Assembly: GCA_943789275.1 (NCBI GenBank)
Contig: CALSTM010000003.1
Span: 515,935 to 579,934, forward strand
Origin: Candidatus Poseidoniaceae archaeon
Lineage (GTDB): Archaea > Thermoplasmatota > Poseidoniia > Poseidoniales > Poseidoniaceae
Length of the DNA stretch: 64,000 bases
Reading direction: 5' to 3'
Shown here: piece by piece, positions 9,082 to 55,900 of the stretch
How positions within the stretch are numbered: the first letter of the stretch is position 1
Layout of the letters: each line of letters starts with the position of its first letter
The notes under the pieces: model-generated
The model's input: only the letters and a program-made list of their open reading frames with translations
What the model was told of the DNA's origin: nothing
Databases searched by the model: none
Position numbers and translations under genes: made by a program

Positions 9082-11634
9082 ATGAGTGCTCCACCAATTG
9101 TCAGCGGATTTACCCCCGCAGCGTTGGTGCCTTATCTTTTGGCTGCTGCTACGGCGTGGCTGTTCTGGACTCGGGTTGTTCCTCGTCAATTGCGAGGGCT
9201 TCAAGTGGCCTTTCAAACCGATGAGAAACGGTATGAGGTTCACCAAATCACTCGTACAACCAAAGATGCCCGAGAGTTGCTGAGTTCCCGTGGAATGGTT
9301 TTTGGTGTAGCATCGTACATTCTTGCTTTGGTTGGAGCCCTTCTGTTGTTCTTTGAATTCATCATGATTCGACTGGATTACTCCGAAGGATACCACACGC
9401 CTTCTCTCAGCATTGCACTGATTTTCATCGCTTTCCCCGCCCTTGTTGCTTCGGGAACATCGCTTGGAGCACAAGTCATCAAACCGATTGGGCAAGACCG
9501 AGCATCGTTGCAAGAATCCAGCATTTGGAGGAGTTATACATTCATCATGCTGACTTTACTGTGGGTCGGTCTCGTGGTTGCGCTGTATCTGTTGCTTGAC
9601 GTAGCTGATGTTCCTGCTTCCAGAAGGTTTAGCATTGCTGCCTTTGCTATGTTTTCTCCATCAATACTTGCCTACGGTCGCGTGCTCGGCTCTTCATGGC
9701 AGGCTTTGCGTCAATCGTCACGCAAAATTGCGAACGGTAAACCTTCACCGTTCCACAACCATGTTCCTAAGGCAAAACAACAAGCCATTGCTCAAATCGT
9801 TAATTTCAACCTTATCGTCATGCCATATGTGGCTTTGAACACACTTGTTTCACTGTTATTGTTGCTGTATGACCCCTCGATGCTTACGCATTCGGACCGG
9901 GTGCTTGAACTTCCTGAATACCGTGTTCAAACGACGTTTATGGAAGAAGGAGGCATTTTGGGATTTGCGTTGATTGAACTGTTCTCGTTCATTCCGCAAT
10001 CGGGAATACGGGTGCCTATTGTGTCGTTTATTCTCTTGTTTTTGCTGCTGAACGTTGCCATAATTGGGTTTTTGTTTGTTTACGAAGTCGCTCGTATTCT
10101 CTTTTTGGATGTTCAAGATGTATCGGGTAAAGGTGGCATCAAACTCGCTGACAGCCGGTTACTGCGAGCAGAACCAACCCAGCAAGCCAAAGTTCTCAAT
10201 TTCTGCTTTACTGGATTTGCCGGCCAATCGATGCTGCTGTTGGCTCTGGCCATGATCACTTTTTGGGACTCAAGTTTCCTACCACAAGGCGCAGCATGCG
10301 GCGAATGGGAGAACACAGTTTGTAAAGTCCTCGAAAAGGATTCACTCGAGGAATTAACATGGATGCTTGCGTCAGGAGGTCAAATTGCTTTCCTCACCAT
10401 CTGGGCCCGCTCTCGCCGCATTGGGTTGAAATTGGAAGACATTTCTTTTGACGCAGCAGTCGGAGAAAATCGAGAACGTCTTTCTGAGATGGCTGATTTG
10501 ATTTACCTTAAGCAAAAGCCGTTCACTGAATTGGTTGCGAAAGACGATTGGTCAAAAGCCATGGACCGTCTTGACAAAGTGACAGAAGGTCACGGCGAAC
10601 AATTGGAAGGCCTCAATCTTGCTCGAAAGACGGATGCTATGATGGAATTGTATGCGGGTCTCGGACGTTGGAATGAGGCTGAACAAGAAGCAGTATCCCT
10701 GCTTGCGTTGCGTGGTGGGCGAGAAGCACAGGTTGCTCGTTTGGTTTTGACCGCTGCTAGTTTGGCACAACGCGATTATGCTGAGGCGAAACCTCGACTC
10801 GTTCTTCTCAATGACGACGACATTGAATCTGCTCGTTTGCAATGGGCAGCGTCTTTGTTCAATCCTAAACATACGAAATTGGCCCCTGAACACAAGTCGC
10901 TCATCTCGATTGACTCCTTGATGAAGCGTAACATCGACCTGGTTGAACGCTACCGTACGGGCCAACCGAAAAGCCAACTCAAGTATCTCAATACTCCAGC
11001 AGGGCGTCTTTTCCTACTCGGAGACGTGGCTCGAATGCGCCTTGCCGGAATTCCGGACAAGGGATTGAACCTTATTGAGGCGTTCATGAAGGATTTTGAA
11101 ATTACCGATTGGACACACGGTGATGTTGTCCGGTCCTTGCTTCACATCGATGCTGGCCGAATCCACACCGGTATCCGAATGGCTGAGAAATTGGCGGATG
11201 AACACCCTCGGCACCCTCACGTTCGCAATTTGGTGGGAGAGTTGTCCCGTGGCGGGTACATGGAAATGTTGCCTTCGGAGGCTACACCCATCGAATGGCT
11301 CAACGATTCAGGGCTTAACTGGCTCGATGGATGGATGCGAAAGCACGTCGTGGCCCCTCCTCCAACCTTCGGAAAGAAATCTCTCATTCAACACGCTTGG
11401 ACTTCGAACGGCTGGTCGGCCATGGATGGTTCAGGTAGCCTTGTTGCTGCTTATGCAAAGAAGTCCAACGGTTGGAAAGGCCTTCAGAAAGTGTGGCCAA
11501 ACGGCCTTCCGATGTGCCTTCATCTTCACTTGACAGGTATTATCGTCACCATCTCCGGAATGCCTGTCGACCTTGGTTTCCCAGGAGCGCTTGATCTCAA
11601 GACCATCGACAAGAAACAACTTCTCGAACTTTAG
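9082..11634 (+). CDS. hypothetical polytopic membrane protein with a large C-terminal helical (TPR-like?) soluble domain
   Basis: About 8-10 TM helices in the first ~480 aa, then ~370 aa helical soluble region. No recognised catalytic motifs. Starts 10 nt after thrS. Confidence 0.5.
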   Translation: MSAPPIVSGFTPAALVPYLLAAATAWLFWTRVVPRQLRGLQVAFQTDEKRYEVHQITRTTKDARELLSSRGMVFGVASYILALVGALLLFFEFIMIRLDYSEGYHTPSLSIALIFIAFPALVASGTSLGAQVIKPIGQDRASLQESSIWRSYTFIMLTLLWVGLVVALYLLLDVADVPASRRFSIAAFAMFSPSILAYGRVLGSSWQALRQSSRKIANGKPSPFHNHVPKAKQQAIAQIVNFNLIVMPYVALNTLVSLLLLLYDPSMLTHSDRVLELPEYRVQTTFMEEGGILGFALIELFSFIPQSGIRVPIVSFILLFLLLNVAIIGFLFVYEVARILFLDVQDVSGKGGIKLADSRLLRAEPTQQAKVLNFCFTGFAGQSMLLLALAMITFWDSSFLPQGAACGEWENTVCKVLEKDSLEELTWMLASGGQIAFLTIWARSRRIGLKLEDISFDAAVGENRERLSEMADLIYLKQKPFTELVAKDDWSKAMDRLDKVTEGHGEQLEGLNLARKTDAMMELYAGLGRWNEAEQEAVSLLALRGGREAQVARLVLTAASLAQRDYAEAKPRLVLLNDDDIESARLQWAASLFNPKHTKLAPEHKSLISIDSLMKRNIDLVERYRTGQPKSQLKYLNTPAGRLFLLGDVARMRLAGIPDKGLNLIEAFMKDFEITDWTHGDVVRSLLHIDAGRIHTGIRMAEKLADEHPRHPHVRNLVGELSRGGYMEMLPSEATPIEWLNDSGLNWLDGWMRKHVVAPPPTFGKKSLIQHAWTSNGWSAMDGSGSLVAAYAKKSNGWKGLQKVWPNGLPMCLHLHLTGIIVTISGMPVDLGFPGALDLKTIDKKQLLEL

Positions 11635-14480: not shown

Positions 14481-14956
14481 TGTCGAACGAACACAGTATG
14501 CGACGTGTAACTGCAATTCGAAACGGTACGGTCATCGACCACATTCCATCGGGTCAAGCAATGCGTGTCTTGGAAATGCTCGGCATAGGTGGGGAAACTT
14601 CGGTTCCGATTTCGCTGGTCATGAACGTCCCGTCAAAGAAGATGGGCTCAAAAGACATCATCAAAGTCGAAGACCGAGAATTGACACAACCGGAACTTGA
14701 CCGTTTGGCTCTTGTTGCTCCTGATGCTCACGTTGCGATTATCCGTGCGTACTCGGTAGCAGAAAAACTCACCATCAACCTCGGCGAAGAAGTCGTCAAT
14801 GTCGTTCGATGCACCTTCTCGAATTGCATCACAACTAATCTTCGTGAACCTCAGCCGCACCGCTTGCGAGTTATTGAGCGAGATCCGCTTCAATTGCGCT
14901 GCCATTATTGCGGTCGCCCACAAGAGTTGGGAGAATTGGCGAACAACGTCCTATGA
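14477..14956 (+). CDS. pyrI: aspartate carbamoyltransferase regulatory subunit
   Basis: ATGA overlap with pyrB. C-terminal zinc-domain cysteines (CTFSNC...CHYCGR). 159 aa. Confidence 0.9.
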   Translation: MMSNEHSMRRVTAIRNGTVIDHIPSGQAMRVLEMLGIGGETSVPISLVMNVPSKKMGSKDIIKVEDRELTQPELDRLALVAPDAHVAIIRAYSVAEKLTINLGEEVVNVVRCTFSNCITTNLREPQPHRLRVIERDPLQLRCHYCGRPQELGELANNVL

Positions 14957-15958
14957 TTCGTCGTTCATCAGTTGACGCATGTCACACGCTTTGCATTGAA
15001 TGCCTGAAGTGAGTTCACCGCATGTTTGGCACGGCATTGGTGGTGCAGGACGAGCTTCTGAACCTCCCAATTCGATAACTTGGTCACGCAGCAACTTGAT
15101 GTTGTCAGCCATTCGAAGCAAACCGTGGCGAGTACCTGGGACATCTGCCTCCATTTGAGCGACCATTTCACGATGCCTCCAACGCAATGCTCCTTGTGCA
15201 TGTGGGCATTCTTCGTGGTGAAGAGGTAGGTCTCTGTGCAATGCATAGAGGTGGACTTCTTGTTCAGGTATCCAACGCAAGGGAACGATACGTGGCGCTA
15301 ATCCATCCACTGGAGTTGTTGTGTGCGGCGCGAGTCTGAGTGTGCGTTCAACATCACCGTTGGTCATGTTCATGAGAACGGTTTGAGCCATGTCATCGAG
15401 GTTATGTCCCAGGGCAACATAATCTGCGTTAACTCGCTTTGCCAAATGATTGATTCCTTGCCGACGGAATACGCCGCAATAGGAACACGGCATACGAGGG
15501 GCCTCTTTGTTGTCCTTGACAAGGCCGGGGATTTTACTCGCCACTTCATCCATTTCTTTGAAACTCAATTCGGGATAGGAGACGGTGATGAACTCTATTC
15601 CAAGCCGTTCGCACAATTCTTGGGCGCAGACCAGCGATGGAGGACGGTAGCCCTCTATGCCTTCATCGACGGTTCCGGCGATGATGGTGACGTCGGGACG
15701 TTGGCCGACTCGGTCGACCAAACTATCGAGCAATACGGCGGAATCCTTGCCACCGGAGATGGCGACAAAGATCACTGTGTTCTTGTCACGAGGTAAAATG
15801 AGTTGTTGGCGCAGTTCTTTGCCTATTTTTTTGCGAACTGATTTCGCCATGTGTTCGCTGCATAGAATACGCCCGGAGTAGGCTTGTTCAAGGATGGCTG
15901 GTTTGGAGCAACTGTCGCACTTTGGTACGGAAAACAGCGGTTCCCCCTCATGCGCCAT
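14951..15958 (-). CDS. tRNA 2-thiolation PP-loop ATPase, TtuA/NcsA family
   Basis: PP-loop SGGKDS, an N-terminal CxxC zinc finger (CDSC), a central CSYCGVFRR and a C-terminal CQTC...CKAC. Convergent 6-bp overlap with pyrI. Confidence 0.75.
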   Translation of the reverse strand: MAHEGEPLFSVPKCDSCSKPAILEQAYSGRILCSEHMAKSVRKKIGKELRQQLILPRDKNTVIFVAISGGKDSAVLLDSLVDRVGQRPDVTIIAGTVDEGIEGYRPPSLVCAQELCERLGIEFITVSYPELSFKEMDEVASKIPGLVKDNKEAPRMPCSYCGVFRRQGINHLAKRVNADYVALGHNLDDMAQTVLMNMTNGDVERTLRLAPHTTTPVDGLAPRIVPLRWIPEQEVHLYALHRDLPLHHEECPHAQGALRWRHREMVAQMEADVPGTRHGLLRMADNIKLLRDQVIELGGSEARPAPPMPCQTCGELTSGIQCKACDMRQLMNDES

Positions 15959-16134
15959 GGTACTTGGCGTGCACCTCTACGGTTTGAGTTCACCGCTTAC
16001 CATGACCTGATTCCTCACATTGAATCAAGAAGATGAAGTAAATATTTCAATTGCAATTTCGATTTTTCAATTGGAATAATAAACAAATTGCTGAGATATT
16101 ATGCCGATTTTCTCTGTATTTTGATACGAGATTA

Positions 16135-16181
16135 GGCGCGGAAAACAACCGAAGAAACGGTCTCCGCGTCGCCCTTTTTTG
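16135..16181 (+). promoter_or_regulatory. stem-loop (GGCGCGGA...TCCGCGTCGCC) followed by a T6 tract, in the AT-rich divergent intergenic region between ttuA-like and the Roadblock gene; a CCCCCTTTAGGGGG palindrome follows at 16219-16232
   Basis: Seen in sequence. The hairpin plus oligo-T resembles a terminator/attenuator on the + strand, ~70 nt upstream of the Roadblock ORF. Direct TTCAATTG repeats sit at 16050-16080. Confidence 0.25.
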
Positions 16182-16249
16182 AATCTCCAGTTGGAAAATC
16201 TATTTGGGTCTTCAAATCCCCCTTTAGGGGGATAAAAGCGCAAAAGTAC

Positions 16250-16627
16250 TTGAAGGCCACAGCACTGACCGATTGTTTGAGAACCATGCTGCAACGTGCA
16301 TTAGCCGGATTATGCCGCCTTGAAGGCGTCAATCATGCTATGCTTCTCGATGATTCAGGTCAACTCTTGGCCAGTGTTGGAGAGGAAGGTATTTTTGCAC
16401 CTGTTGACCAAGCCGTTGAGATGATGAGCGTCGCTCAAGAAACGGGCCATGCACTTGGCTTGGGTCAAGTGTATGAGGTCTGGTGCGAGAGTACTTCACG
16501 CATGGTTCTTGATGTGGTTGGACCGAATCGCATCATCGTACTCAGCGGAGACGGTGGTCGGTTAGCACGATGGCGACATGCGCTTGACCGCGACCGTCGA
16601 ATTTTAGCGACAACCCCACGAATGTGA
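16250..16627 (+). CDS. Roadblock/LC7 (MglB-like) domain protein
   Basis: About 120 aa with the typical Roadblock pattern (LEGVNHAMLLDDSGQLLASVGEEG ... IIVLSGDGGRLA). The track start is TTG; the first ATG is at ~16286. 4-bp overlap with the next gene. Confidence 0.7.
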   Translation: MKATALTDCLRTMLQRALAGLCRLEGVNHAMLLDDSGQLLASVGEEGIFAPVDQAVEMMSVAQETGHALGLGQVYEVWCESTSRMVLDVVGPNRIIVLSGDGGRLARWRHALDRDRRILATTPRM

Positions 16628-19600
16628 GTGATACCATGTTTAATCTACCCGAAGGAAAACCAATTGAAGGAACAATCAGCGTCGAAAGCGGTTCTATACA
16701 ACCGTTTGACCATGGTGTGATTAGCACCTGGGTTGGTCGACGAAAAACACCTGCTGGACACCGTTTGGTTCGTGCAGGTCGAATCGTTGCTTGGCTTGCT
16801 GAATCTGGTAAGGGCAAACTGTTGCTTGCAGGTAAGGAGGCTCGACTTCGTCTTGAAGACCTTGAATCCACGGAAAACAGCAGGTACATTGCTGGAGAGT
16901 ATTCACTTGCAGGACTCGGAAGCGTCGCTGAAGTTGTTCCTGAAGCGTTTGAGCACGCAGCAGACCGCCAGGGACTTCTTGCACGTGGCGATGCAGTCGT
17001 CCGACTTCTGTCACGAGATTTGTCAGCAGTTCTCCGAACAATGGTTGAACGAGAAACCGTTCGAGGAGCGATTGCCATCGATCAAGGTATGTTGATTGAC
17101 AGCATTGGTGAACTACCGAACGAAGCAGAAACCCTTGCCCGAGAAATCCATTCGACACTGGAAGCGATGAACATCAGTATTGTCGAAGACGACAGCATGA
17201 CCAGCGGTAGCCATTGGACCATGCACCACGAAGGTGGTTCACTTCTTTTGGCTCAAGCAGGAGATGTATCCTTGGGCGTTTGGACCGAAGCCAATACCAA
17301 TCATGCACGACTTATTTCGGCAGCAGCAGCCGTACTGGAAGGCGAACTCGGTGCAGTCGGTGCTTCTGGCGGGCCATTGCCTGAAGGTTTTGTTCTGCGT
17401 GAAGGTCGAGGCGGTCCTGATGCCATTCTTTCCATGTTAACTGCAGGAGTCAAAGAAGAAGTGACCGGTCACCTTCAATCCGGCCAATCATCGACCGCTG
17501 TATCGGTCCTTTTAGCTCGAGGTGTACCTGTTGGAATCTCTGCTCCCGAAGGCCAATCTTTGGAGGAAGCAATGCTCACCTTCACCGATTCATCCCGAAT
17601 CCTCAAACTTCACCGCTTACCTGCAGGAACCATTGTTTCCCGTGACTCGGGTACGGTTGATGAATTCCGACTCGACGATTTCCACGACCTTCTTGTCACC
17701 CTTCGAACACGTTCTGAAAGTCGTCGTGCCAATTTGAAGAGTAAACTCACCGATTTGTTTGGATTTGAAATCGGAATGGAACAACTGCGCAAGAACCGTT
17801 CCAGTGCGACCTTCCCTGAAACAGTAGAAGTGGTCAGTGGAGGATTGCCAGGCGACGCAACTCAACCCTTGGCAGTCGACGCCGGTTTGCGACGCCGATT
17901 GGAATCAGCAGAACACCTCATCAACGATTTGGAAAAAGAAAAAGCCGTCCTCACCAGCCGTCTTGAAGAGGCCCAATCTGGAAAGAAGGCTGCCCAAATC
18001 CTGGCCCGTGAAGCATCCGAATCACGACAAGAGTTCCTTACCAAAGTCGAATCCTCGAATTCTTCTCTCGACTCATTGCAATTGGATGTTGCAGAATCTC
18101 GTGCTGCGGCAGAACAGGCTGAAAACCGAGCAGAACGCCTTGTTAAGCGTGTGAATGAACTTGAACATCAGGTGAGCGTCCGTGCTGCTGAATTGGCTAA
18201 GGCTCTCGGCCATGCAGATTCAAGCGAAACTCTTCGTTCATCCATTGAGGAGTTGGCATTGAAAGAAGCACAACTCAACGGTGACCTCTTGGCAGGAAGT
18301 GAAAGATTGGCAACCATCCGTCAACAATCGGATGATGATGAACGCCGACTTCGAGTTCTTCAAGAACAAGTTGAGGCAACACGAGAGCGTCATACTCGAG
18401 CGCAAGCGGAAGCCATGATGATGGAAGACAAGATCCACTCGAATTCATCTGAATTGGAGGCCATCGAATCGGAAGCGAAAGCGGCCCGCCGCAGAGCAGA
18501 AGAGGATCGCAATCGCTTGGCTACCGACGAGGCACGTCAAGCACAAGTTCAGGCTGAACTTCGTGAATTGATGTCTGAGCGCCGTCAAACGCTACGTGAA
18601 TTGGGTGACCTTGGCGCTCGCAGAGGACATGCTGAGGCCGAACTTGTATCGCTTATCGAGCGTGCTGAAGCACTTTCGCAAGCGCATGAAGAGGCACTCT
18701 CTGATATTCAAGAAGCAGAACGCCTACGAGCAAGACTGGCTGAAGAGCCACTTGCTCAGGCACTGCTTGACGATGCCTCAACGTTCGATGGTCTTGGACC
18801 GGTGCTTGAACGGCTTGAGAATGCCAGAGCATTGGGTTACTCAGTTACACTGCTCGACCGTGCCGTCGAGCGTGGTTTGCAAGTGATTCAATCAACCGTG
18901 GACCATGTTGCGGCAACGCCACGGCATCTTCTTTCCAGTGAAGTCATGACGCTCCTTGAACGACAAGTTCCTCAAACCGCAGGTGCAGTTCGCGGACTCG
19001 CACGCTGGTCAGTTCAACAACGGCTCGAACATCAGTTGGGAGAAACAGTCGGCCATGTGGTTCTTGACCTTGAACATCTGCTGGAAGATTTCGACCGTTC
19101 CATCACGATGTTGCGTCGATTAAGAAATGTCCTTGAACAACTTGTTCGACTCGGAGCACCTCCACACGAAGTGGATGCATTGCTGAACAATTGCACACGG
19201 CCCGAAGCGCTACCAAGTATTGCACAAGCCACTCGTAAACTCATTCAAGTCGCTCTTGATGACATCTATTTGGAAGCGGACCAACGAGATGCAGGTGAAG
19301 CGATTGCCTTGGAAGACACCGCTCGTGTCCTTGAAGAACTGATTACCCAATTGGACGCTTCAGGACTCGCTGATGGCGTCCCAAGCGGTATGCTTTGGGA
19401 ATTCCAACGCGACGGCTTGTTGCCGTATGAACGCAATACAATCCCCGATGCTCAACGAACACCGGTCGAACAGGCGATGTTGAGCGATATGGAACCCTCA
19501 CTTGCCGGACAGGTTCCAGTTTCACTCGATGTTGTTGTCGAAACAGCTGAAGTTGATGAATCAGGTTGGGAGCAAATGCCTACACCTGTTGATGAAGATG

Positions 19601-19803
19601 ACTCTGATACGAAGGAATCAGCCCCGACCAGTACGCCGGTCACGGTCAATGAATCAGAACACAGTGATGAGCGGGCCCAACTTGAGGCTGAATTGGCTCG
19701 ACTTGATGCATCATGGGATCGCAGGAAGGAACCTGCTGTGGAACAGACTACCGACCCAGCTTTGGCTGCTCTTGAAGCACGACTGTCGAATCTTGATTTC
19801 TGA
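16624..19803 (+). CDS. large Roadblock/LC7-domain protein with ~600-aa coiled-coil region and acidic C-terminus (1059 aa)
   Basis: Residues ~125-245 look like a Roadblock domain (VRGAIAIDQGMLIDSIGEL ... GGSLLLAQAGDVSLGVWTEAN). Residues ~400-750 are heptad-rich and charged (EAQSGKKAAQILAREASESRQE..., RERHTRAQAEAMMMEDK...). Translationally coupled to the upstream Roadblock gene. Confidence 0.6.
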   Translation: MSDTMFNLPEGKPIEGTISVESGSIQPFDHGVISTWVGRRKTPAGHRLVRAGRIVAWLAESGKGKLLLAGKEARLRLEDLESTENSRYIAGEYSLAGLGSVAEVVPEAFEHAADRQGLLARGDAVVRLLSRDLSAVLRTMVERETVRGAIAIDQGMLIDSIGELPNEAETLAREIHSTLEAMNISIVEDDSMTSGSHWTMHHEGGSLLLAQAGDVSLGVWTEANTNHARLISAAAAVLEGELGAVGASGGPLPEGFVLREGRGGPDAILSMLTAGVKEEVTGHLQSGQSSTAVSVLLARGVPVGISAPEGQSLEEAMLTFTDSSRILKLHRLPAGTIVSRDSGTVDEFRLDDFHDLLVTLRTRSESRRANLKSKLTDLFGFEIGMEQLRKNRSSATFPETVEVVSGGLPGDATQPLAVDAGLRRRLESAEHLINDLEKEKAVLTSRLEEAQSGKKAAQILAREASESRQEFLTKVESSNSSLDSLQLDVAESRAAAEQAENRAERLVKRVNELEHQVSVRAAELAKALGHADSSETLRSSIEELALKEAQLNGDLLAGSERLATIRQQSDDDERRLRVLQEQVEATRERHTRAQAEAMMMEDKIHSNSSELEAIESEAKAARRRAEEDRNRLATDEARQAQVQAELRELMSERRQTLRELGDLGARRGHAEAELVSLIERAEALSQAHEEALSDIQEAERLRARLAEEPLAQALLDDASTFDGLGPVLERLENARALGYSVTLLDRAVERGLQVIQSTVDHVAATPRHLLSSEVMTLLERQVPQTAGAVRGLARWSVQQRLEHQLGETVGHVVLDLEHLLEDFDRSITMLRRLRNVLEQLVRLGAPPHEVDALLNNCTRPEALPSIAQATRKLIQVALDDIYLEADQRDAGEAIALEDTARVLEELITQLDASGLADGVPSGMLWEFQRDGLLPYERNTIPDAQRTPVEQAMLSDMEPSLAGQVPVSLDVVVETAEVDESGWEQMPTPVDEDDSDTKESAPTSTPVTVNESEHSDERAQLEAELARLDASWDRRKEPAVEQTTDPALAALEARLSNLDF

Positions 19804-19812
19804 GGTGCTCAC

Positions 19813-20055
19813 ATGACTGAACCTTCGACTCTCCTTCATCGAAGCGAATCACCTGGGCGGCGTTATCCCCTGTTTCTTGAACGAATAGTACTGGTTTTGG
19901 TCATCGCTGGAACATGGCTGCTCCACCCGATTGTTTTGGATACGTTGGACGGTGCACTTGGCACACTTGCAGCATGGTGCGGATTACCGTTGCTGTTGCT
20001 GATGTGTGCTGAACTTATTGGACGAGCTCTTCAATCGGTTCTCAACGATGCGTGA
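19813..20055 (+). CDS. small membrane protein (80 aa, 2 TM), likely co-transcribed with the Roadblock genes
   Basis: SD-like GAGGTG 7 nt upstream of the ATG and 10 nt after the stop of the 1059-aa gene. Hydrophobic segments LVLVIAGTWLL and LAAWCGLPLLLLMCAELI. Confidence 0.45.
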   Translation: MTEPSTLLHRSESPGRRYPLFLERIVLVLVIAGTWLLHPIVLDTLDGALGTLAAWCGLPLLLLMCAELIGRALQSVLNDA

Positions 20056-21270
20056 TTAAATATCGACGACTTGCTTTTCTGCGGGTAGTGCATCAGCGTT
20101 CTTTCGAGCGTAGACCAGTCCCCATATTCGCTCCCAAGGTACAAAGAATCGTAACAGTGCCATGATGCTCAAGAACATGGCAGCGGAGATTACCAATCCA
20201 TAGGTAAGCGACAATTCAATCGATTCAGAGATTTGTCCAGCCCATTGACTTCCCGTTGAATCTTCGACAAAACCGAGCAGAACCGTGTGGAAGCCAAGTG
20301 CCACCATTGTTGCGATACCCGTGAGCCCAAGGAATCCAAAGGTGTGTTTGAGGTGTGTGTTGAGGACGTTATCCATTTGTCGGACGTATTCTGGGTCACG
20401 CTTGCACGATTCAGGAAGTCTGTAGGCATACTCGAGATAGCGGATGACACCGTAGGATGATTCTTGGAACACCATGATGAGGACTGCAATCATAATCAAC
20501 GCAAACTGTTGTTTGGTGACCAACATCAATCCGAAAATGCCGATGGTCGGTTCGCTGAATTGAGCACCGATGACGTTGACTGAATCGCCGTACGAGCCCA
20601 GTTGACCGTTGATGAGTGGGAAAGCAAGAATGGCGTGTATTCCAAGAAACAGCAATGTGAATCCAATGGCCCAAGCGATGGAGCGACGAGACAATCCCCA
20701 AATGCCGCGCACACCCATGATAACGGGTAAGAGGTAAAGGAACAGAATCATCAGTGAGAGAATCATGAGCAGTGGCCATTCAAGGGTGCTTAATTCGTTC
20801 GAGTTTGGCAAGCGTAGGTCGAATGAGAACAGCATTCCGGTTAGCCATGACAACAACAACTGTCCGACCAAGACAACGATGAGCGTGACGATGAATCCAA
20901 GTTTGACCCGTTGTTGAACTTTCGGCGTTTGGAAGGCAAGTAATGCCATACCGCCACCCACGACTATTCCGAGGATCAAGGGTACGAAGAATCGAGCCAG
21001 GCCGCTTCTTCCTTCACCGGTCAACCAGTCTCCGATTGGCAGTTGGTCTCCAATCAGTATTTCGATGGTGTCAAACAGCATGGTGTGGTCGATGGAGCCA
21101 ACGACGTAATTTGAGACAACTTCCAGATACATGCCGACAAGTGCCATTGTGGCAATGACCTGCAAGGAGATGATTTGCCACTGCTTTCGAAGGAGTTTGA
21201 GGTGCAGTGTCCTTGGACTTCTTTCACCCGTGACGGTGACGTCTCGTTGCAATCCCACATCATCAGCCAT
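20056..21270 (-). CDS. polytopic membrane protein (10+ TM), last gene of a DUF4350-DUF58 module
   Basis: Highly hydrophobic throughout. Start is 1 nt downstream of the DUF58 gene stop. No identified domain (possibly DUF4129-like). Confidence 0.5.
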   Translation of the reverse strand: MADDVGLQRDVTVTGERSPRTLHLKLLRKQWQIISLQVIATMALVGMYLEVVSNYVVGSIDHTMLFDTIEILIGDQLPIGDWLTGEGRSGLARFFVPLILGIVVGGGMALLAFQTPKVQQRVKLGFIVTLIVVLVGQLLLSWLTGMLFSFDLRLPNSNELSTLEWPLLMILSLMILFLYLLPVIMGVRGIWGLSRRSIAWAIGFTLLFLGIHAILAFPLINGQLGSYGDSVNVIGAQFSEPTIGIFGLMLVTKQQFALIMIAVLIMVFQESSYGVIRYLEYAYRLPESCKRDPEYVRQMDNVLNTHLKHTFGFLGLTGIATMVALGFHTVLLGFVEDSTGSQWAGQISESIELSLTYGLVISAAMFLSIMALLRFFVPWERIWGLVYARKNADALPAEKQVVDI

Positions 21271-21271
21271 C

Positions 21272-22525
21272 TCAATACCCCCTCACTTGCATGAGTGCTT
21301 GTGACAAGTCCATGTCTGGCATCCAATCGATGACCATTGCTCCAGAACCGGCCAGTGTGGTTAGGCGGTTCTGTCGTTCGAGTTTGAGAACTTCATAGGA
21401 CATACGAGGTATTCGGCTCACTAATCGCTCAAAGTCAATGCTTGAAGGCGAGAGTACGGTTACTTCGTGGCCGCGTCCAACGAGATCTCGGACTGCAGCA
21501 GGAACTGTTCCGTCACCCTCACATGAGGAGATGATGAAGACCGGACTGCCTCGGCTGAACCTACCGCTCAATGAGTTGGTAACGGCTTGTAACGGCATGG
21601 TCCCCTTCGGAGATACGCCGGCAAGGGCGCTGAGGATTTTGAAATACTGCTTGTCACCGGTATCCGGTGGGAGATAGGAGAGGTTGTCGTCGAAGATGGC
21701 AAGAGCAACAGAATCTCTTCTCTTGAGGAAAAAGGCCGCAAGACTTGCAGCAGACACGGTTCCCATCTCGAGGGGATTTTTCAGCACTGTACCGATTCGA
21801 GCGATGTCTCTACTGTCCAAAAGAATGTACAAGTCGGTAACAGCATCTCGGCACTTTTCGTTGACCATCAAGTCACCTGTACGGGCAAACGCCTTCCAAT
21901 TGATGTTCTTGAACGGGTCACCCGGTACATATTCTCGCAGTGAGTAGAATTCTGAACCTTGCCCAGGTGTTCGCAGTGTTGTGGCTCCAGTGTACATCTT
22001 TGGTGTGCGGGAGCGAAGGAATGCTTCTTCCACTTCCTTGATTTGTGGGAAGATGACGATGTCGCTGTGGTGGTCGACGTACATTTCGTCGACGCCCAAG
22101 TTGAAGGTGTTGCGTGAACGCAGTGATACCGGCCCAATCGAGAAATGACCTCGCAGCGGGCATCGAAGGACGTAGCGTATTCGAGCGCTTTCTCCGGGTT
22201 TAAGGTTGAGTCTCATTTGGTTAAGCCCGCTTCTCAATTTCATTTCATGCGGAATGTTGTCGTAGACTTCCAAGAGTTGAGTGTTGCGGTTTGAGCGGTT
22301 CGTGACCAGCAGCTCAACGTACAAATCATCGCCTTTGTAGAGATTATCTGCAGAAAGTGTTCGTTGAACTTCGACATCTCCGTGACCCGAAATCCACGAG
22401 TTGACAACAATGAAAGCGATGAACGTCAGTCCAAGAATCATCATCTGGAGATTTGCAATCATCATTCCGATGAGAATAAGTGCAATACCGCCGGTGAATG
22501 TGAAAGATGCCTTACGTGTCCACAT
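21272..22525 (-). CDS. DUF58 family protein (MoxR-associated vWA-like) with N-terminal TM helices
   Basis: DUF58 hallmark EFYSLREYVPGDPFKNINWKAFARTGDLMVNEKCRD...LYILLDSRD. Starts 9 nt after the preceding gene. Confidence 0.7.
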   Translation of the reverse strand: MWTRKASFTFTGGIALILIGMMIANLQMMILGLTFIAFIVVNSWISGHGDVEVQRTLSADNLYKGDDLYVELLVTNRSNRNTQLLEVYDNIPHEMKLRSGLNQMRLNLKPGESARIRYVLRCPLRGHFSIGPVSLRSRNTFNLGVDEMYVDHHSDIVIFPQIKEVEEAFLRSRTPKMYTGATTLRTPGQGSEFYSLREYVPGDPFKNINWKAFARTGDLMVNEKCRDAVTDLYILLDSRDIARIGTVLKNPLEMGTVSAASLAAFFLKRRDSVALAIFDDNLSYLPPDTGDKQYFKILSALAGVSPKGTMPLQAVTNSLSGRFSRGSPVFIISSCEGDGTVPAAVRDLVGRGHEVTVLSPSSIDFERLVSRIPRMSYEVLKLERQNRLTTLAGSGAMVIDWMPDMDLSQALMQVRGY

Positions 22526-49978: not shown

Positions 49979-52900
49979 ATGCCCAGCATACGCCATGCGA
50001 ATTTCAACCGAGCCGTCGTTTTATCGCTCTTGATGATGATGATGACCCAAGTTGGTTATCTTGAATCCATGAACCCGTGGACAAACGGCGAAGAAACGCT
50101 CGACTCGAACGAAGTGATTTCACATACGTCTGCTGCAACGTCCGTGATGTATGGGAACAATTCGTTGTGGGCTCCTGACGGTAGTCAAATATTCAATGCT
50201 GGCGATGAAATGATGGCCGTTACATCCGATGTTGTGTTTTATATAGGAGCCACTAATCAAAACCCTCAAGACTTTGAGAAATGTTTGGCTGCATACAACT
50301 CCTCCAACATGACGAGATGGATTCCAAACATTGCAGGTCGATCAAATACCTGCTCTAGTAGTGTAGTAGGCCAGTCGATTGCTGAATTCAACTTCATTAC
50401 TCAAGTCGATGGACTCACATTTTTTGTCATGAAGGCCTCCCCAGGCAGGCAACAGATTCATGCCTACAATCCTGCAAACGACACGGTGTATCTTCACGAC
50501 ACCTCCCGTACTGGAAAAACTATTCTTGATAGTGTTGCAATTGGCAGAACAATATACTCACTGCAAAACTACCCCTTTATGATGACAGCATACAACATTG
50601 ACAATGGTTCTTCATGGGATATCTCAACTTCATCCCAATATTTTGTTGGTTTAAACGCCGTAGGAGGCAAAATTCTAGCTTTCAACAACAATACACAACA
50701 ACCATCGGGTCCGAATAATTGCAGCTACACAGGTTCATGTTATGAGCCATGGATTTACGATCCAGCCAACAACACATGGTTCAGGCCAACAAGAGGAAAC
50801 GAAATCATCAACAGGCCCATTGCGACAAGTGATTCCAAAGCCCTTGTCACCAATGGACAGATGTTTTGGGCTGACACTAACTACACCTACGGAATGGGTG
50901 CGTGGGTGTTTGATTCATCCAACAACACATATTGGATGCTTGATGCAAATGCGTCAACAGGGATGTCAACTATCACAACTGGACGATCTTCAGCAATTCG
51001 TTCTGGAACATCAATTTTCTATCTTACCAGACCTGCGTATTCGGTTTCCGGGCAAACCTTGTATGGCCTCGATCTTTGGGGTTACAGCACTGTCAATTCG
51101 TCGAGTTGGCGTCTATCGAACATCACGGAATTGCACCAACCTGATGCTCAATATGGATGTTCACAACAGCTTGCCGGACTCGCCAATGGCGATTTTGTGA
51201 TGTCCTTCGGGCGGGGTACGGGTTGCAACACGGTAGAAGTCGTATTTTATTCTTTAACCAACGACACGGCATGGCAAGTTTCTGGACTCGACTCTCCAAG
51301 CGATACCTCAAAGGTTTATTCTTTTCAGGGAAATGATATGGGACTATTGGGGGTTTATGGGAACACTGTTTATCTGAAGGGTAAAACTGCATACCCTTCC
51401 TATGAGCATGGACTCATTGCTTATGACGCTACGAATGGTTCATCGTATTCAACAACGGTTACGGGAGGATTCATCTCTGGTATTACCAGTAACCAGCCCG
51501 TACTCGGAAACGGGGGTCAATTCGTTTTCACGATGGGAAGTTATACCTGTGACTGTAACCCTTCTTGGGCAGATAGCTCCAGATATTCGTTTGCAGTCTG
51601 GACACCAACCGCTATCACCGTTAGCGATGCATGGAATCTCACACCTGGTCAGCGTATCGATGGACCGATTACAGGAGGTTTGGGCGGCGCATCGGATTCG
51701 GGTGTAGGCGTTCAAAATCTAACTGCCAGTGCCGAAGGTGCAGAACTCATCATCGACGAGGCCATGACCAACATCACCTTCCAATACAATTCCAGTGCGG
51801 CAAGCGGCTCAGGCGGCGGCTCAGGCGGCATGACCAACGTCACCGGTGCAACCTGCAGCGTTTCACCTTCTCTTCCAACCGGCCTATCCATCGACAGCGG
51901 CACGTGCACCATCAGCGGTACACCTTCAGTTGCAACAACGAACACAACTTACACGGTCACGGCGGTCATGAGCGGTGTGACCTACCAGACAACGGTATGG
52001 CTCTCAAGCGCTTACCTCCCACTCACGCCAAGTGTCGAAGGTGCAGAACTCATCCTCGATGAGGCCATGACCAACATCACCTTCCAGTACAACGCCAGTG
52101 CAGCAAGCGGCTCAGGCAGCGGCTCGGGCAGCGGCGGCATGACCAACCTCACCAATGCAACAAGTTGTGTTGCTTCACCAAGCCTACCAACCGGCCTGTC
52201 CATCGACAGCAGCACGTGCACCATCAGCGGTACACCAACGGTTGCGACGACAAACACGACCTACACGGTCACCGCCAACATCAGCAACGTAACCTACCAG
52301 CCAACGGTATGGCTCTCAAGCGCTTACCTACCACTCACGCCAAGTGTCGAAGGTGCAGAACTCATCCTCGATGAGGCCATGACCAACATCACCTTCCAGT
52401 ACAACGCCAGTGCAGCAAGCGGCTCAGGCAGCGGCTCAAATCAATCAAGTTTCGTCAATAACATCGGACTGAGAACCACATCGGGTTCAGCCACTCAAAT
52501 GATCAATGGGACAGCCATCACACCGATTGAATTCTCTCTTGAATGGGACAATTTCTCCCTGCCGAGTAATCTGAGTTCCAATGAAAAGGTGACATTCCCG
52601 TTCGACCATTCGTTCAACGACACATCGTCCACGCCCATGGAAAACTCAACCGCTTCGAACCTCACCTACGACCGACACGGCCGAGAAATGCACGCCCTGG
52701 ATGATGAAATTGAATACGGTTGGAGTGCGACAAATCGCAGTGAATTGGCAATCAATTCAAACACCATTTCACTCTCTCTTTGGGTAAAGCCAACCAATGT
52801 TGGGACAGTGCAAAACATCATCGACAACCACCCACAATACGACCTTAGAATAGATGCAAACGGGGCGCTCAGCTTCAGAATACGTCAAACTGGCAACGGA

Positions 52901-55900
52901 GCGTGGAACGACCATTATTCGAGCATACAACTCGAGAATGATGTGTGGTATCACATTGGCGTATCCGCAACGTACAGCAGCGGTTACGTGGTGAATTTCT
53001 ACGTAAATGGGTCGTCTGATGTCACGCGAACATCATCAGGTACTCAATTTACATCAACGTCAGGGACTACTTTAGGCCTCAGCAGTGCCGATAGTTGGTA
53101 TGATGGCTTTGATGGTGTTCTTGATGACCTGTACATATACGACGGACTCCTCTCTGCATCGAATTTTGCCACACTGATGGATGTCGGTGAAATCACGTGG
53201 GATATTTCGCCCGCTCTTCCGAGTGAATTGTCGCTGGATACAATCACAGGGACAATCACTGGAACACCTCCTAGCTCCCAAGGCGCAGGCCAATACACGG
53301 TGTATGCCAACTCCTCCACGACTTCCTATTCGCGAACATTCAACCTGAGTTTGAATTCATTCATGCCCACCGTCACCGGTGCAACATGTACGGTTTCACC
53401 TTCCCTTCCAACCGGCCTGTCCATCGACAGCAGCACGTGCACCATCAGCGGTACACCAACGGTTGAGACGAGCAACACGACCTACACGGTCACCGCCAAC
53501 ATCAGCAACGTGACCTACCAGGGCAGCGTGTGGTTGTCCACCTCGACGTTCGGCACCATCACCTCAGCGGTGGAAGGTGCGGCGCTCAACTTGGGTGAAG
53601 CGATGACCCCGATCACGCTCAATTACACGGTGAACGTCAACGCTTCATCTGGTTCTTCAGGATCTTCCGGTTCCAGTGGAGGCTCGGGTTCAAGCGGCGG
53701 CTCTTCGAGTTCCTCGTCCTCTGTTTATGCAAACAACAAGCTGTCTGCTGGATCTTCCCACACCTGTGCCATCCTTGACAACGGCGACCTGAAGTGTTGG
53801 GGGCTGGGATGGCACGGACAGTTGGGCGATGGAGGAAGCGGGTTTAGCTACGACACCAACGCACCTTCATCCACCGCCATCAACCTCGGCAGTGGCCGAA
53901 CGGCCGTTGCTGTGTCTGCTGGAGGTTCCCACACCTGCGCCATCCTTGACAACGGCGACCTGAAGTGTTGGGGGTATGACGGCTACGGACAGTTGGGCGA
54001 TGGAGGAAGCAACACGAACACCAACGCACCTTCATCCACCGCCATCAACCTCGGCACGGGCCGCACGGCCGTTGCTGTGTCTGCTGGAGGTTCCCACATC
54101 TGCGCCATCCTTGACAACGGCGACCTGAAGTGTTGGGGGCGGGACAATTACGGACAGTTGGGCGACGGTGGAAGCAACACGGACACCAACGCACCTTCAT
54201 CCACCGCCATCAACCTCGGCACGGGCCGAACGGCCGTTGCGGTGGCTGCTGGATCTTACCATGAGTTTACCTGTGCCATCCTTGACAACGGCGACCTGAA
54301 GTGTTGGGGGCGGGACACTTCGGGACAGTTGGGCGATGGAGCAGGCACCAATAACCTCAACGCACCTTCTTCCACGCCGATTGACCTTGGCAGTGGCCGA
54401 ACGGCCGTTGCGGTGTCTGCTGGAAGTGCCCACGCCTGCGCCATCCTTGACAACGGTGACCTGAAGTGTTGGGGGTCTAACTCCTTTGGGTCGTTGGGCG
54501 ATGGAGGAAGCCACGCGTACACCAACGCACCTTCATCCACCGCCATCAACCTCGGCACGGGCCGAACGGCCGTTGCTGTGTCTGCTGGAAATGGCTTCAC
54601 CTGCGCCATCCTTGACAACGGTGAGGCGAAGTGTTGGGGGTATGACTACAGTGGACAGTTGGGCGATGGAGGAAGCAACACGAACACCAACGCACCTTCA
54701 TCCACCGCCATCAACCTCGGCACGGGCCGAACGGCCGTTGCGGTGGCTGGTGGAAATGGCCACAACTGCGCCATCCTTGACAACGGTGAGGCGAAGTGTT
54801 GGGGGTATAACTCCCAAGGAGAGTTGGGCGACGGTGGAAGCAACACCAATCAGGGTTCACCGGTAGCTGTTTCTGGCAGCAACACCTGGGATGCCACGAC
54901 CACCATCGCCACTTGGGAAACACACCCTGCTTTACCAGCGGGCATGAGCATCTCAGGCGGTACGATCAGCGGCACACCTTCGGTCTATGCGACCAATCAA
55001 ACCTACACGATTTACGCCAATAAGAGCGGTTATTCAACCACGCACGAGTTGTACTTTAGCGTGGATACAGACAATGCGCATACCGTCGTTGAAAATCAGA
55101 CGATTGATCCAATTGGCTTCCATCCTCCGTTCTGGAACGGTACGACCGCTTGGACGGTCTCACCTGCCTTGCCGGGCAACCTCTCCATCAACGGAAGCAC
55201 CGGTGAAATCACCGGAACGGTCAACGGAACGCTGACCAACACCACCTACACGGTGACAGCGACGCACAGTGGCTCAGGCGCTGCAACGGAAACCTTCTCG
55301 TTCAACTTGCAGAGTCTTGCTGATTACGATGGCGACGGTCTTGCCAACGACTTGCCAAGCGATTACGATGCAGCTGAAGGGCCAACCTCTGGTCTTGTTG
55401 CTGACGATGATGACGACGGCGACGGCCTTGCCGACAGCATCGAAACGAATACTGGAACCTACATTGACGCCAGCGATACGGGCACCGACCCATTGAATCC
55501 AGACACCGACGGTGATGGTATCTGCGACGGACCAAATGCAGTACCTCCAATCTGTGTTGCAGGTCCAGACATGGACCCGAACGGTGAGAGTTTCCCACCA
55601 ACCTTGGTGGCCATCAACAACACCGCCATCTCAACGCTTGCTCCATACTTGGCAGTAAGCGGTGGAACGTACGAAATTGCACCCGACTTGCCAGCAACCC
55701 TGTCACTTGACCCCGCAACCGGTGAAATCACCGGTACACCGACCGAAACCATCACCAACACGACCTTCACCATGTGGTCGAACAACTCCAACGGTGATTC
55801 TCTCTCGTGGAACTTCACCATTGAAATCTTGGAAGACAGCGACGGCGACGGAATGCCAAACGAACTTCCGGGCGATTATGATCCAACCAACCCTGATGCA

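Follow-up and report, generated by a model that had tools for sequence, protein, structure and literature searches.

Three ORFs, all on the forward strand, were confirmed at the coordinates of the first-pass annotation in a window of 64 kb (the whole stretch of Candidatus Poseidoniaceae DNA that was analysed), and they encode in order a small Roadblock/LC7 protein, a giant multidomain protein, and a predicted two-pass membrane protein (Table 1). Due to the common strand, the short spacers (8 nt from the small gene to the giant, 9 nt from the giant to the TM gene), the presence of Shine-Dalgarno (SD)-like sequences, and the minus-strand genes that bracket the set on both sides, the three genes were considered one unit, and they have, at the level of sequence, the layout of a single transcription unit.

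The ORF of the small gene opens at TTG 16250, which had given a product of 125 aa in the first-pass annotation. The conserved start is ATG 16286, homologues are 112–113 aa long, and in L001 a TAG stands in frame ahead of this ATG; the start is thus most likely ATG 16286, with a product of 113 aa, the usual homologue length. Likewise, the giant ORF opens at GTG 16624 (1059 aa, and residue numbers are counted from this codon throughout), and the conserved ATG 16636, with the motif MF.LP, is located 8 nt past the stop of the small gene and is most likely the true start; a GTGAT SD-like run sits in between. Translational coupling by a 4-bp overlap had been proposed, and of this claim the tight spacing stood. 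The overlap itself hinges on GTG 16624 as start, since the conserved ATG leaves an 8-nt spacer, and was probably an artefact of the start codon chosen. Across 73 loci the spacer between small gene and giant was 4–10 nt, and therefore tight coupling of the two is still conserved, with a spacer of mostly 8–11 nt before the TM gene.

Table 1. Features of the three-gene locus, with positions in the window and the evidence for each.
Feature	Position	Strand	Evidence
Conserved non-coding region 5′ of the operon	16136..16285	+	alignments of 9 and 37 species
Small Roadblock/LC7 protein, 113 aa	16286..16627	+	Pfam Robl_LC7, family profile vs PDB, homologue lengths
Giant multidomain protein, 1055 aa from conserved ATG	16636..19803	+	alignments
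N-terminal domain, giant residues 5–118	16636..16977	+	invariant columns in alignments
Roadblock/LC7 fold, giant residues 124–240	16993..17343	+	AF2 model, family profile
Second alpha/beta domain, giant residues 257–331	17392..17616	+	AF2 pLDDT 75–84
Coiled coil of ~290 residues, giant residues ~420–710	17881..18753	+	heptad score, composition
All-helical bundle, giant residues 720–940	18781..19443	+	AF2 model
Acidic disordered stretch, two short helices and C-terminal motif, giant residues 941–1059	19444..19800	+	composition, AF2 model, alignment
Two-pass membrane protein, 80 aa	19813..20055	+	hydropathy

The upstream region carries a hairpin (GCGCGGA-N20-TCCGCG) followed by a T-run, conserved blocks CAGTTGGAAAAT and GCGCAAAACTTCTTGAAGGCTACAG, and the 19-mer AAATCCCCCTTTAGGGGGA (16214–16232), which occurs once in the window (0 expected by chance) and at an identical offset in 36 loci, and TTGAG is found immediately 5′ of the ATG of the small gene. 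The region is probably a promoter or operator. A structured RNA was unsupported (RNAalifold -0.68 kcal/mol, 4 pairs, zero compensatory changes), and no Rfam family matched the region. The sigma-70 promoter and terminator scan was uninformative, as the host is an archaeon.

The small protein scored 23.7–24.2 bits against Pfam Robl_LC7 (PF03259, cutoff 23), and the same family was matched by 9/11 members of the small-protein family, with a best E-value of 2.8e-7. When a diverse family profile was compared with PDB, hits were obtained to 7f8m_A (E-value 2.3e-6, positions 4–97), 9jue_D (7.7e-5) and 7yh1_D (2.2e-3). With these Pfam and PDB matches the small protein is assigned to the Roadblock/LC7 family on sequence grounds. 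A word-index search returned 29 relatives, and all of those with an organism name were Poseidoniaceae; no obvious paralogue was present among them, and away from the giant the small family seems to be absent.

At the N-terminus of the giant, a conserved domain with the motif PFDxGVIS...R.KTP.GHRL...VGWLAE was modelled by AF2 with low confidence (residues 5–118). It is followed by an a-b-b-a-b-b-b-a unit (residues 124–240, pLDDT 75–85 in a model of residues 1–420), the fold of which is superposable on solved Roadblock members, so that the structure of the N-terminal region bore out the Roadblock domain anticipated for the giant. The diverse profile of this region in turn matched CvnB5 (3leq_A) with an E-value of 3.5e-5. 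Pfam gave no Roadblock match in the giant of the window and 27 close homologues, and Robl_LC7 matched 4/11 divergent giants (best E-value 6e-4). The small protein and the Roadblock region of the giant were weakly similar when their profiles were compared (E-value 1.3e-3 to 8.5e-3 over 27–34 columns), too weakly to prove that the two Roadblock domains are homologous. The second alpha/beta domain (residues 257–331) has the order b-a-b-b-b-a-b in the AF2 model and returned no PDB sequence or Pfam match; an assignment to PATAN/DUF4388 (PF14332) found no support, with no match at E-value ≤5–10 in any of the 28 close and 11 divergent members.

The central part of the giant (residues ~420–710) is rich in E, R, A and L, and its heptad score supports a coiled coil; this and the acidic tail (residues 940–1015, 25% D+E) agree with the first-pass annotation. 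The coiled coil has conserved breaks near residues 527–536 and 566–576. Pfam, NCBIfam and full-length PDB profile searches with the giant of the window produced only coiled-coil noise, including weak NCBIfam matches to Rad50/SMC coiled-coil arms, and homologues gave weak tropomyosin and crescentin-rod matches. A giant acting as an SMC/Rad50-like chromosome protein could claim the NCBIfam matches (E-value 2.3e-7 to 1.3e-5, residues 430–708 only) and a weak JetC match, but the former cover the coiled-coil arm only and reach 29.5 bits against a family cutoff of 1087. Moreover, the giant has no Walker A motif, no ATPase head and no CxxC hook (the translation contains a single Cys, C857), and its termini are a Roadblock-containing and a helical-bundle domain. 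Such an identity is refuted by the absent ATPase motifs, and we give this reading next to no credence. An anti-phage defence system was rejected as well; PADLOC returned only a coiled-coil-type JetC match (E-value 0.0066), and the genes are located within conserved housekeeping synteny. No enzymatic domain was detected in the giant by Pfam scan and motif search.

The helical bundle (residues 720–940) is the best-conserved portion of the giant family, in keeping with a binding module. The C-terminus ends in a conserved motif, L-x-x-L-E-x-x-L-x-[DN]-[LI]-[DE]-hydrophobic. The 80-aa protein encoded 3′ of the giant, expected to have two TM segments and its own SD, contains two hydrophobic segments (residues 22–43 and 47–70), and an SD-like GGTG precedes its ATG by 6 nt. 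Alignment across lineages revealed the motifs YP..LER ahead of TM1 and E..GR..Q past TM2, and a two-TM ORF occupied the position 3′ of the giant in 70 of 78 ORFs read.

A set of 1.84 billion representatives yielded about 10 full-length clusters of the giant family, a tiny number; they share one gene neighbourhood without exception and are on contigs mostly labelled Poseidoniales. The giant was present in 209 species-representative genomes. By these sequence searches the operon is restricted to the order Poseidoniales (Marine Group II, MGII). Among 80 species genomes, the small gene was present at 77 loci, the other three beginning inside the giant, and the two-TM ORF was identified by tblastn at 70 loci and by direct ORF reading at 7 more; the remaining loci had no flanking DNA for the missing small or two-TM gene. 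The trio arrangement was retained in 6/9 divergent cluster representatives, and a seventh had it with an FG-GAP gene inserted. The predicted co-conservation of the three genes was thus upheld in 77/80 species loci and most of ten divergent representatives.

In two lineages the set was incomplete: the giant of P0153 has no small gene upstream, and that of P0158 has neither small gene, which is evidence against an obligate heterodimer. Additionally, synteny extends throughout the order over a 12-kb block, pyrBI-TtuA through Cdc48, so that adjacency of the trio is in part a matter of inherited gene order and is weaker evidence than it appears. The three genes could even be neighbours only because their order was inherited, with the small Roadblock protein as a homodimer in a role of its own and the giant acting without it. 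This would agree with the syntenic block, with the retention of the giant in 2/10 lineages where the small gene is missing, and with the 40–50% identity of the small protein to the window copy where the giant still shows 62–63% (within Poseidoniaceae), a difference that indicates unequal divergence rates. We nevertheless regard it as quite unlikely, as the spacers of 4–10 nt were retained in 73 loci, the genes share one strand with opposite-strand genes on both sides, and the small family is apparently found only beside the giant.

The reported absence of a GTPase nearby extends to the whole window, where no GTPase family was among the Pfam matches of the scanned ORFs (some ORFs gave no match at all), no ORF combined Walker A with an NKxD motif, and no GTPase of the Rag type, with a Roadblock domain at its C-terminus, was present. 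Nor was a GTPase present among the Pfam-labelled genes within +/-10 kb of the divergent loci. By the MglA/MglB criterion, an MglA-family GTPase would lie within about four genes of the Roadblock gene, and here none does. The accompanying premise, of GTPase genes as the normal neighbours of Roadblock genes, was overstated: 328 of 749 prokaryotic MglB homologues (44%) are orphans (PMC4316618), and in archaea the Roadblock proteins of arCOG02603 are often within type IV pilus loci (PMC4858521). The proteins might still act as an MglB-type GAP or GEF for a Ras-like GTPase whose gene is in another part of the genome, with the coiled coil localising the activity. This is considered unlikely in view of the missing GTPase in the window and around the divergent loci, and none of the orphan MglB homologues had been characterised as of the 2014 survey (PMC4316618).

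The Roadblock module could alternatively be an ATPase-associated adaptor for the convergent and equally conserved gene cluster that encodes a 404-aa membrane protein, DUF58 and DUF4350 proteins, and the AAA+ ATPase Cdc48. Dynein LC7 light chain belongs to an AAA+ motor complex, Cdc48 is the nearest NTPase, and wherever a lineage has sufficient flanking sequence the cluster directly adjoins the operon. However, the cluster is on the opposite strand in separate transcription units, and its proximity is explained by the general synteny, with no specific link; we consider the adaptor role highly improbable.

Our preferred reading, proposed tentatively and with less than even confidence, is that the operon builds a membrane-associated, elongated scaffold or platform. 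The giant would dimerise through its coiled coil of ~290 residues, which would bring two Roadblock domains to one end, where the pairing partner of each may be the small Roadblock subunit, the Roadblock domain of the other giant copy, or both. The solved Roadblocks that match the model are dimeric platforms (MP1/p14, other LAMTORs, MglB, and Asgard homodimers). At the opposite end, the helical bundle, acidic linker and C-terminal peptide motif may bind a partner, and the two-pass membrane protein would give or receive membrane attachment. On the model of other Roadblock assemblies, the Roadblock head, presumably not itself an enzyme, could be the platform on which an NTPase, or some other client with its gene elsewhere, is docked or regulated. 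A heterodimer and a membrane tether, as suggested in the first-pass annotation, are plausible as hypotheses.

In surface ocean waters, few archaea are as abundant as those of Marine Group II; to our knowledge the group has never been cultured, and because of this its cell biology is essentially unknown. A giant that comes with small partners of its own, downstream of a strongly conserved control region, is thus a candidate structural or polarity component of MGII cells. The operon is a further example of the orphan Roadblock/MglB proteins, a large class that is uncharacterised, and could show what a Roadblock does when the GTPase gene is not adjacent. In the most far-reaching version, a long shot drawn by analogy, the system would be Ragulator- or MglB-like in its working principle, in that a Roadblock heterodimer, anchored at the membrane and borne on a coiled-coil stalk of ~40 nm, would position or switch an NTPase (a distal small GTPase or Cdc48) and would organise the cell pole, division site or archaellum. 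If true, a non-Asgard archaeon would have a polarity system of cytoskeleton-like character that had so far gone undescribed.

No paper or described system matching the trio or the family emerged from literature searches, in line with the earlier impression that this is not a described archaeal system; several known systems resemble it in part. In Ragulator (LAMTOR1-5), small Roadblock pairs form a lysosomal platform held at the membrane by a dedicated anchoring subunit, which the operon would resemble if pairing and anchor are as proposed here, and the Roadblock domain of the giant matches the MP1/p14 and LAMTOR4/5 subunits. There is no evidence of common descent with Ragulator beyond the domain: its anchor is a lipidated wrap-around subunit, whereas that of MGII would be a two-TM protein, it has no counterpart of the long coiled coil, and its Rag GTPase with a C-terminal Roadblock was not found in the MGII window. 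FrzS and AglZ of Myxococcus reportedly combine a small globular regulatory domain with a long coiled coil and form filaments or polar scaffolds; their head is a receiver domain and not a Roadblock, and they are bacterial, with no sequence relationship to the giant.

The best structural and sequence matches of both MGII proteins were the stand-alone Asgard Roadblocks (PDB 7yh1, 9jue, 9jq8, 7f8m), which are likewise archaeal and are dimeric, but single-domain, studied around small GTPases, and devoid of a coiled-coil fusion or TM partner. The best sequence-profile match of the giant Roadblock region was Streptomyces CvnB, which belongs as a Roadblock subunit to a multiprotein complex associated with the membrane (PMC4316618); the conservon includes genes for a histidine kinase, a DUF742 protein and a GTPase as well, and the MGII operon has no counterpart of these three. 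Finally, MglB/MglC/RomY of Myxococcus xanthus is a Roadblock polarity module, from which the MGII operon differs in having no adjacent MglA-type GTPase, in the embedding of a Roadblock in a 1055-aa coiled-coil protein together with a two-TM protein, and in a giant family that is archaeal and confined to one order. The architecture is rated as a new variant of the known Roadblock domain family.

The giant protein, numbered here from GTG 16624, is a new architecture of the known Roadblock/LC7 domain family, restricted to one uncultured order. It is encoded in the middle of three plus-strand ORFs, between a small Roadblock protein and a two-transmembrane (2-TM) protein, and since minus-strand genes bracket them, the three genes (the trio) form a unit of their own. 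The surrounding gene content of the window is archaeal (HMG-CoA synthase, Cdc48, Orc1/Cdc6, TrmB, TtuA).

The trio and its flanking genes (window coordinates).
Feature	Position	Strand	Basis or context
TtuA	14951-15958	minus	upstream flank of trio
Small Roadblock ORF	16250-16627	+	ORF reading
Giant ORF	16624-19803	+	ORF reading
Third-protein (2-TM) ORF	19813-20055	+	ORF reading
404-aa multi-pass membrane protein	20056-21270	minus	downstream flank of trio

Homologues of the small protein were nearly all 112-113 aa long with the N-terminus MLQR, and at one homologous locus (L001) an in-frame TAG lay between an upstream TTG and the conserved ATG; the start of the small gene was therefore placed at ATG 16286. 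Giant homologues began with MF.LP, the window equivalent being ATG 16636, 8 nt past the small-gene TGA with GTGAT in between. The 4-bp overlap of the two genes reported in the first-pass annotation exists only with the GTG 16624 start. Close coupling of the genes is genuine and conserved: the spacer from small-gene stop to giant start is 4-10 nt across loci, and that before the third gene is mostly 8-11 nt. The longest open stretch of the giant in the L001 MAG starts ca. 84 codons past the aligned start (L001 ~10001-10253), a sign of either an in-frame stop or a misassembly.

The assignment of the small gene product to Roadblock/LC7 was borne out by Pfam Robl_LC7 (24.2 bits, threshold 23), which matched nine of 11 diverse family members (best E-value 2.8e-7). 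Over almost its entire length, a profile of diverse members matched solved Roadblock proteins: 7f8m_A (E-value 2.3e-6), 9jue_D (7.7e-5), 7yh1_D (2.2e-3), and then MglB weakly.

No Pfam domains were found in the window giant and 27 close homologues. Sequence support for its Roadblock domain appeared once divergent relatives were included: the profile of the region then matched CvnB5 (E-value 3.5e-5), and Robl_LC7 was matched by four of 11 divergent giants. Two parts of the giant were modelled with AlphaFold2, and the model of residues 1-420 (overall pLDDT 60.8) contained a confident a-b-b-a-b-b-b-a unit at residues 124-240 (pLDDT 75-85) and a second confident alpha/beta unit (b-a-b-b-b-a-b) at 257-331, residues 1-120 being poorly predicted. 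Foldseek search with this model agreed on the Roadblock fold (probability 1.00), and the original placement of the domain at residues ~125-245 is correct. The expected coiled coil was located at residues 420-710 by heptad score, composition (17% E, 12% R, 16% A, 13% L), and weak Rad50 and SMC matches restricted to the coiled-coil arms. Those matches would fit an SMC-like protein, a reading that is refuted; as an SMC/Rad50 ATPase the giant was ruled out by the lack of a Walker A motif and by its single Cys. The acidic tail was likewise recovered as an acidic, disordered linker (residues 941-1010), followed by two helices in the last ~50 residues (1011-1059; window 19654-19800). The C-terminal motif L..LE..L.[DN][LI][DE]-hydrophobic was kept in the alignment of all ten lineages, and the extreme C-terminus looks like a putative short linear docking motif. 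The third protein has the two predicted hydrophobic segments; the motifs that flank them, YP..LER on the N-terminal side and E..GR..Q on the C-terminal side, can be aligned across all lineages.

Homologues came from Candidatus Poseidoniaceae, Poseidonia and other Marine Group II archaea. An exhaustive search of 1.84 billion cluster representatives with the giant HMM returned only 151 matches; about ten are full-length giant clusters, with 35-63% identity to the protein of the window, and the others are fragments. With each species represented by one genome, a scan placed the giant in 209 genomes; the labels of the best 80 were almost exclusively Poseidoniaceae, Poseidonia or unclassified euryarchaeote. 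Judged by these matches and labels, the giant family is confined to Marine Group II and widespread among sequenced species there. One contig labelled 'Verrucomicrobiales bacterium' (NZEQ01000033.1) carried the full Poseidoniales gene order (pyrBI, TtuA, trio, DUF58), and is probably a mis-binned archaeal contig.

The trio was co-conserved, as anticipated. The small gene was present in 77 of the 80 species loci, the other three beginning inside the giant with upstream DNA missing; the 2-TM gene was also present in 77 (70 by tblastn, seven missed by tblastn and found by direct ORF reading), the last three ending before its position. Among nine more divergent representatives, six had the complete trio, one had all three genes with a 448-aa FG-GAP protein inserted between giant and 2-TM homologue, one had a 310-nt gap without an ORF upstream of the giant and kept the 2-TM gene, and one lacked both small genes. 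That two lineages have lost the small gene speaks for its product being an accessory subunit and against its being an obligatory half of the head. In the most divergent lineage (loci L081-L083, 13221-14567) the FG-GAP repeat protein shares ~50 nt with the end of the giant.

The order pyrB-pyrI, TtuA, trio, 404-aa membrane protein, DUF58, DUF4350, sometimes PRC-barrel, and Cdc48 was syntenic throughout. Since the whole block is syntenic, adjacency alone is weak evidence; that the genes share a strand and have short spacers argues more strongly for a trio operon. Less likely readings are that the trio genes are functionally independent neighbours or that they serve the adjoining Cdc48/DUF58 cluster as an adaptor. 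The DUF58 protein (window 21272-22525, minus strand), whose gene sits in a conserved cluster with the 404-aa membrane protein, DUF4350 and Cdc48, was 92-100% identical across 76 species loci, where the giant was 62-96% identical; this conservation is exceptional for a protein of unknown function.

The 328-nt gap between TtuA and the small gene contains unusually conserved non-coding DNA. In this divergent intergenic region, two palindromes ~20 nt apart (window ~16046-16078: TTTCAATTGRAA; motif TTTCAATTG(A/G)AA), with AATTG cores invariant in nine species, are a candidate transcription-factor site. The stem of a hairpin at 16136-16180 (GCGCGGA/TCCGCG) is invariant, its ~20-nt loop differs in every species, and a T-run follows; the hairpin resembles a terminator, yet no upstream plus-strand gene ends there. 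Near-invariant sequence at 16136-16285 recurred at the same offset in loci L001-L044 and L067. Among its elements were the blocks CAGTTGGAAAAT and GCGCAAAACTTCTTGAAGGCTACAG and a TTGAG in front of the small-gene ATG; another, the 19-mer AAATCCCCCTTTAGGGGGA (16214-16232), occurs once in the window and keeps its offset in 36 loci. These elements are conserved across species whose giants are only 62-65% identical, and the region has blocks, the 19-mer among them, that are invariant in species with proteins only about 62% identical. As the upstream region yielded no consensus RNA structure and no fitting Rfam family, 16136-16285 is most simply read as probably a promoter or operator region. Elsewhere in the window, a 2300-aa ORF (49979-56881) overlaps a stretch of raised G+C (0.53-0.57) and shifted skews (52000-58000), and 60-64 kb shows strongly negative GC skew, only a single ORF of 110 aa or more being listed there.

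In agreement with the first-pass annotation, Pfam matches of the scanned window ORFs included no GTPase family. Among window ORFs of at least 100 aa, Walker A motifs occurred only in Orc1/Cdc6, Cdc48 and two spurious ORFs, none followed by NKxD. The missing neighbour is not unusual. A 1,611-genome survey counted 749 MglB homologues, of which 328 had no MglA within four genes, none of these orphans having been studied according to that survey (PMC4316618). Type IV pilus loci are a frequent location for archaeal Roadblock proteins of arCOG02603 (PMC4858521). The trio might alternatively be a true GTPase regulator with a distally encoded GTPase.

No published paper or curated family describing the giant was found in the literature, Pfam or NCBIfam; some members carry the label 'Roadblock/LC7/MglB family', assigned automatically by JGI, which already flags the domain. 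The host order is ecologically important, and the trio would be of clear interest only if a platform or polarity function were demonstrated. The giant may dimerise through its coiled coil, carrying Roadblock domains at one end and a conserved binding bundle plus terminal peptide motif at the opposite end; the small Roadblock protein would be its dedicated partner, and the small membrane protein would be produced from a transcript shared with the Roadblock genes. Roadblock pairing and membrane tethering, both proposed at first pass, and a client are what we infer. In the reading preferred here, held tentatively, the parts fit an elongated, non-enzymatic scaffold that would work as a dimeric docking platform, as do the solved Roadblock assemblies MglB, MglB-MglC, MP1-p14 with the rest of Ragulator, and the Asgard homodimers.
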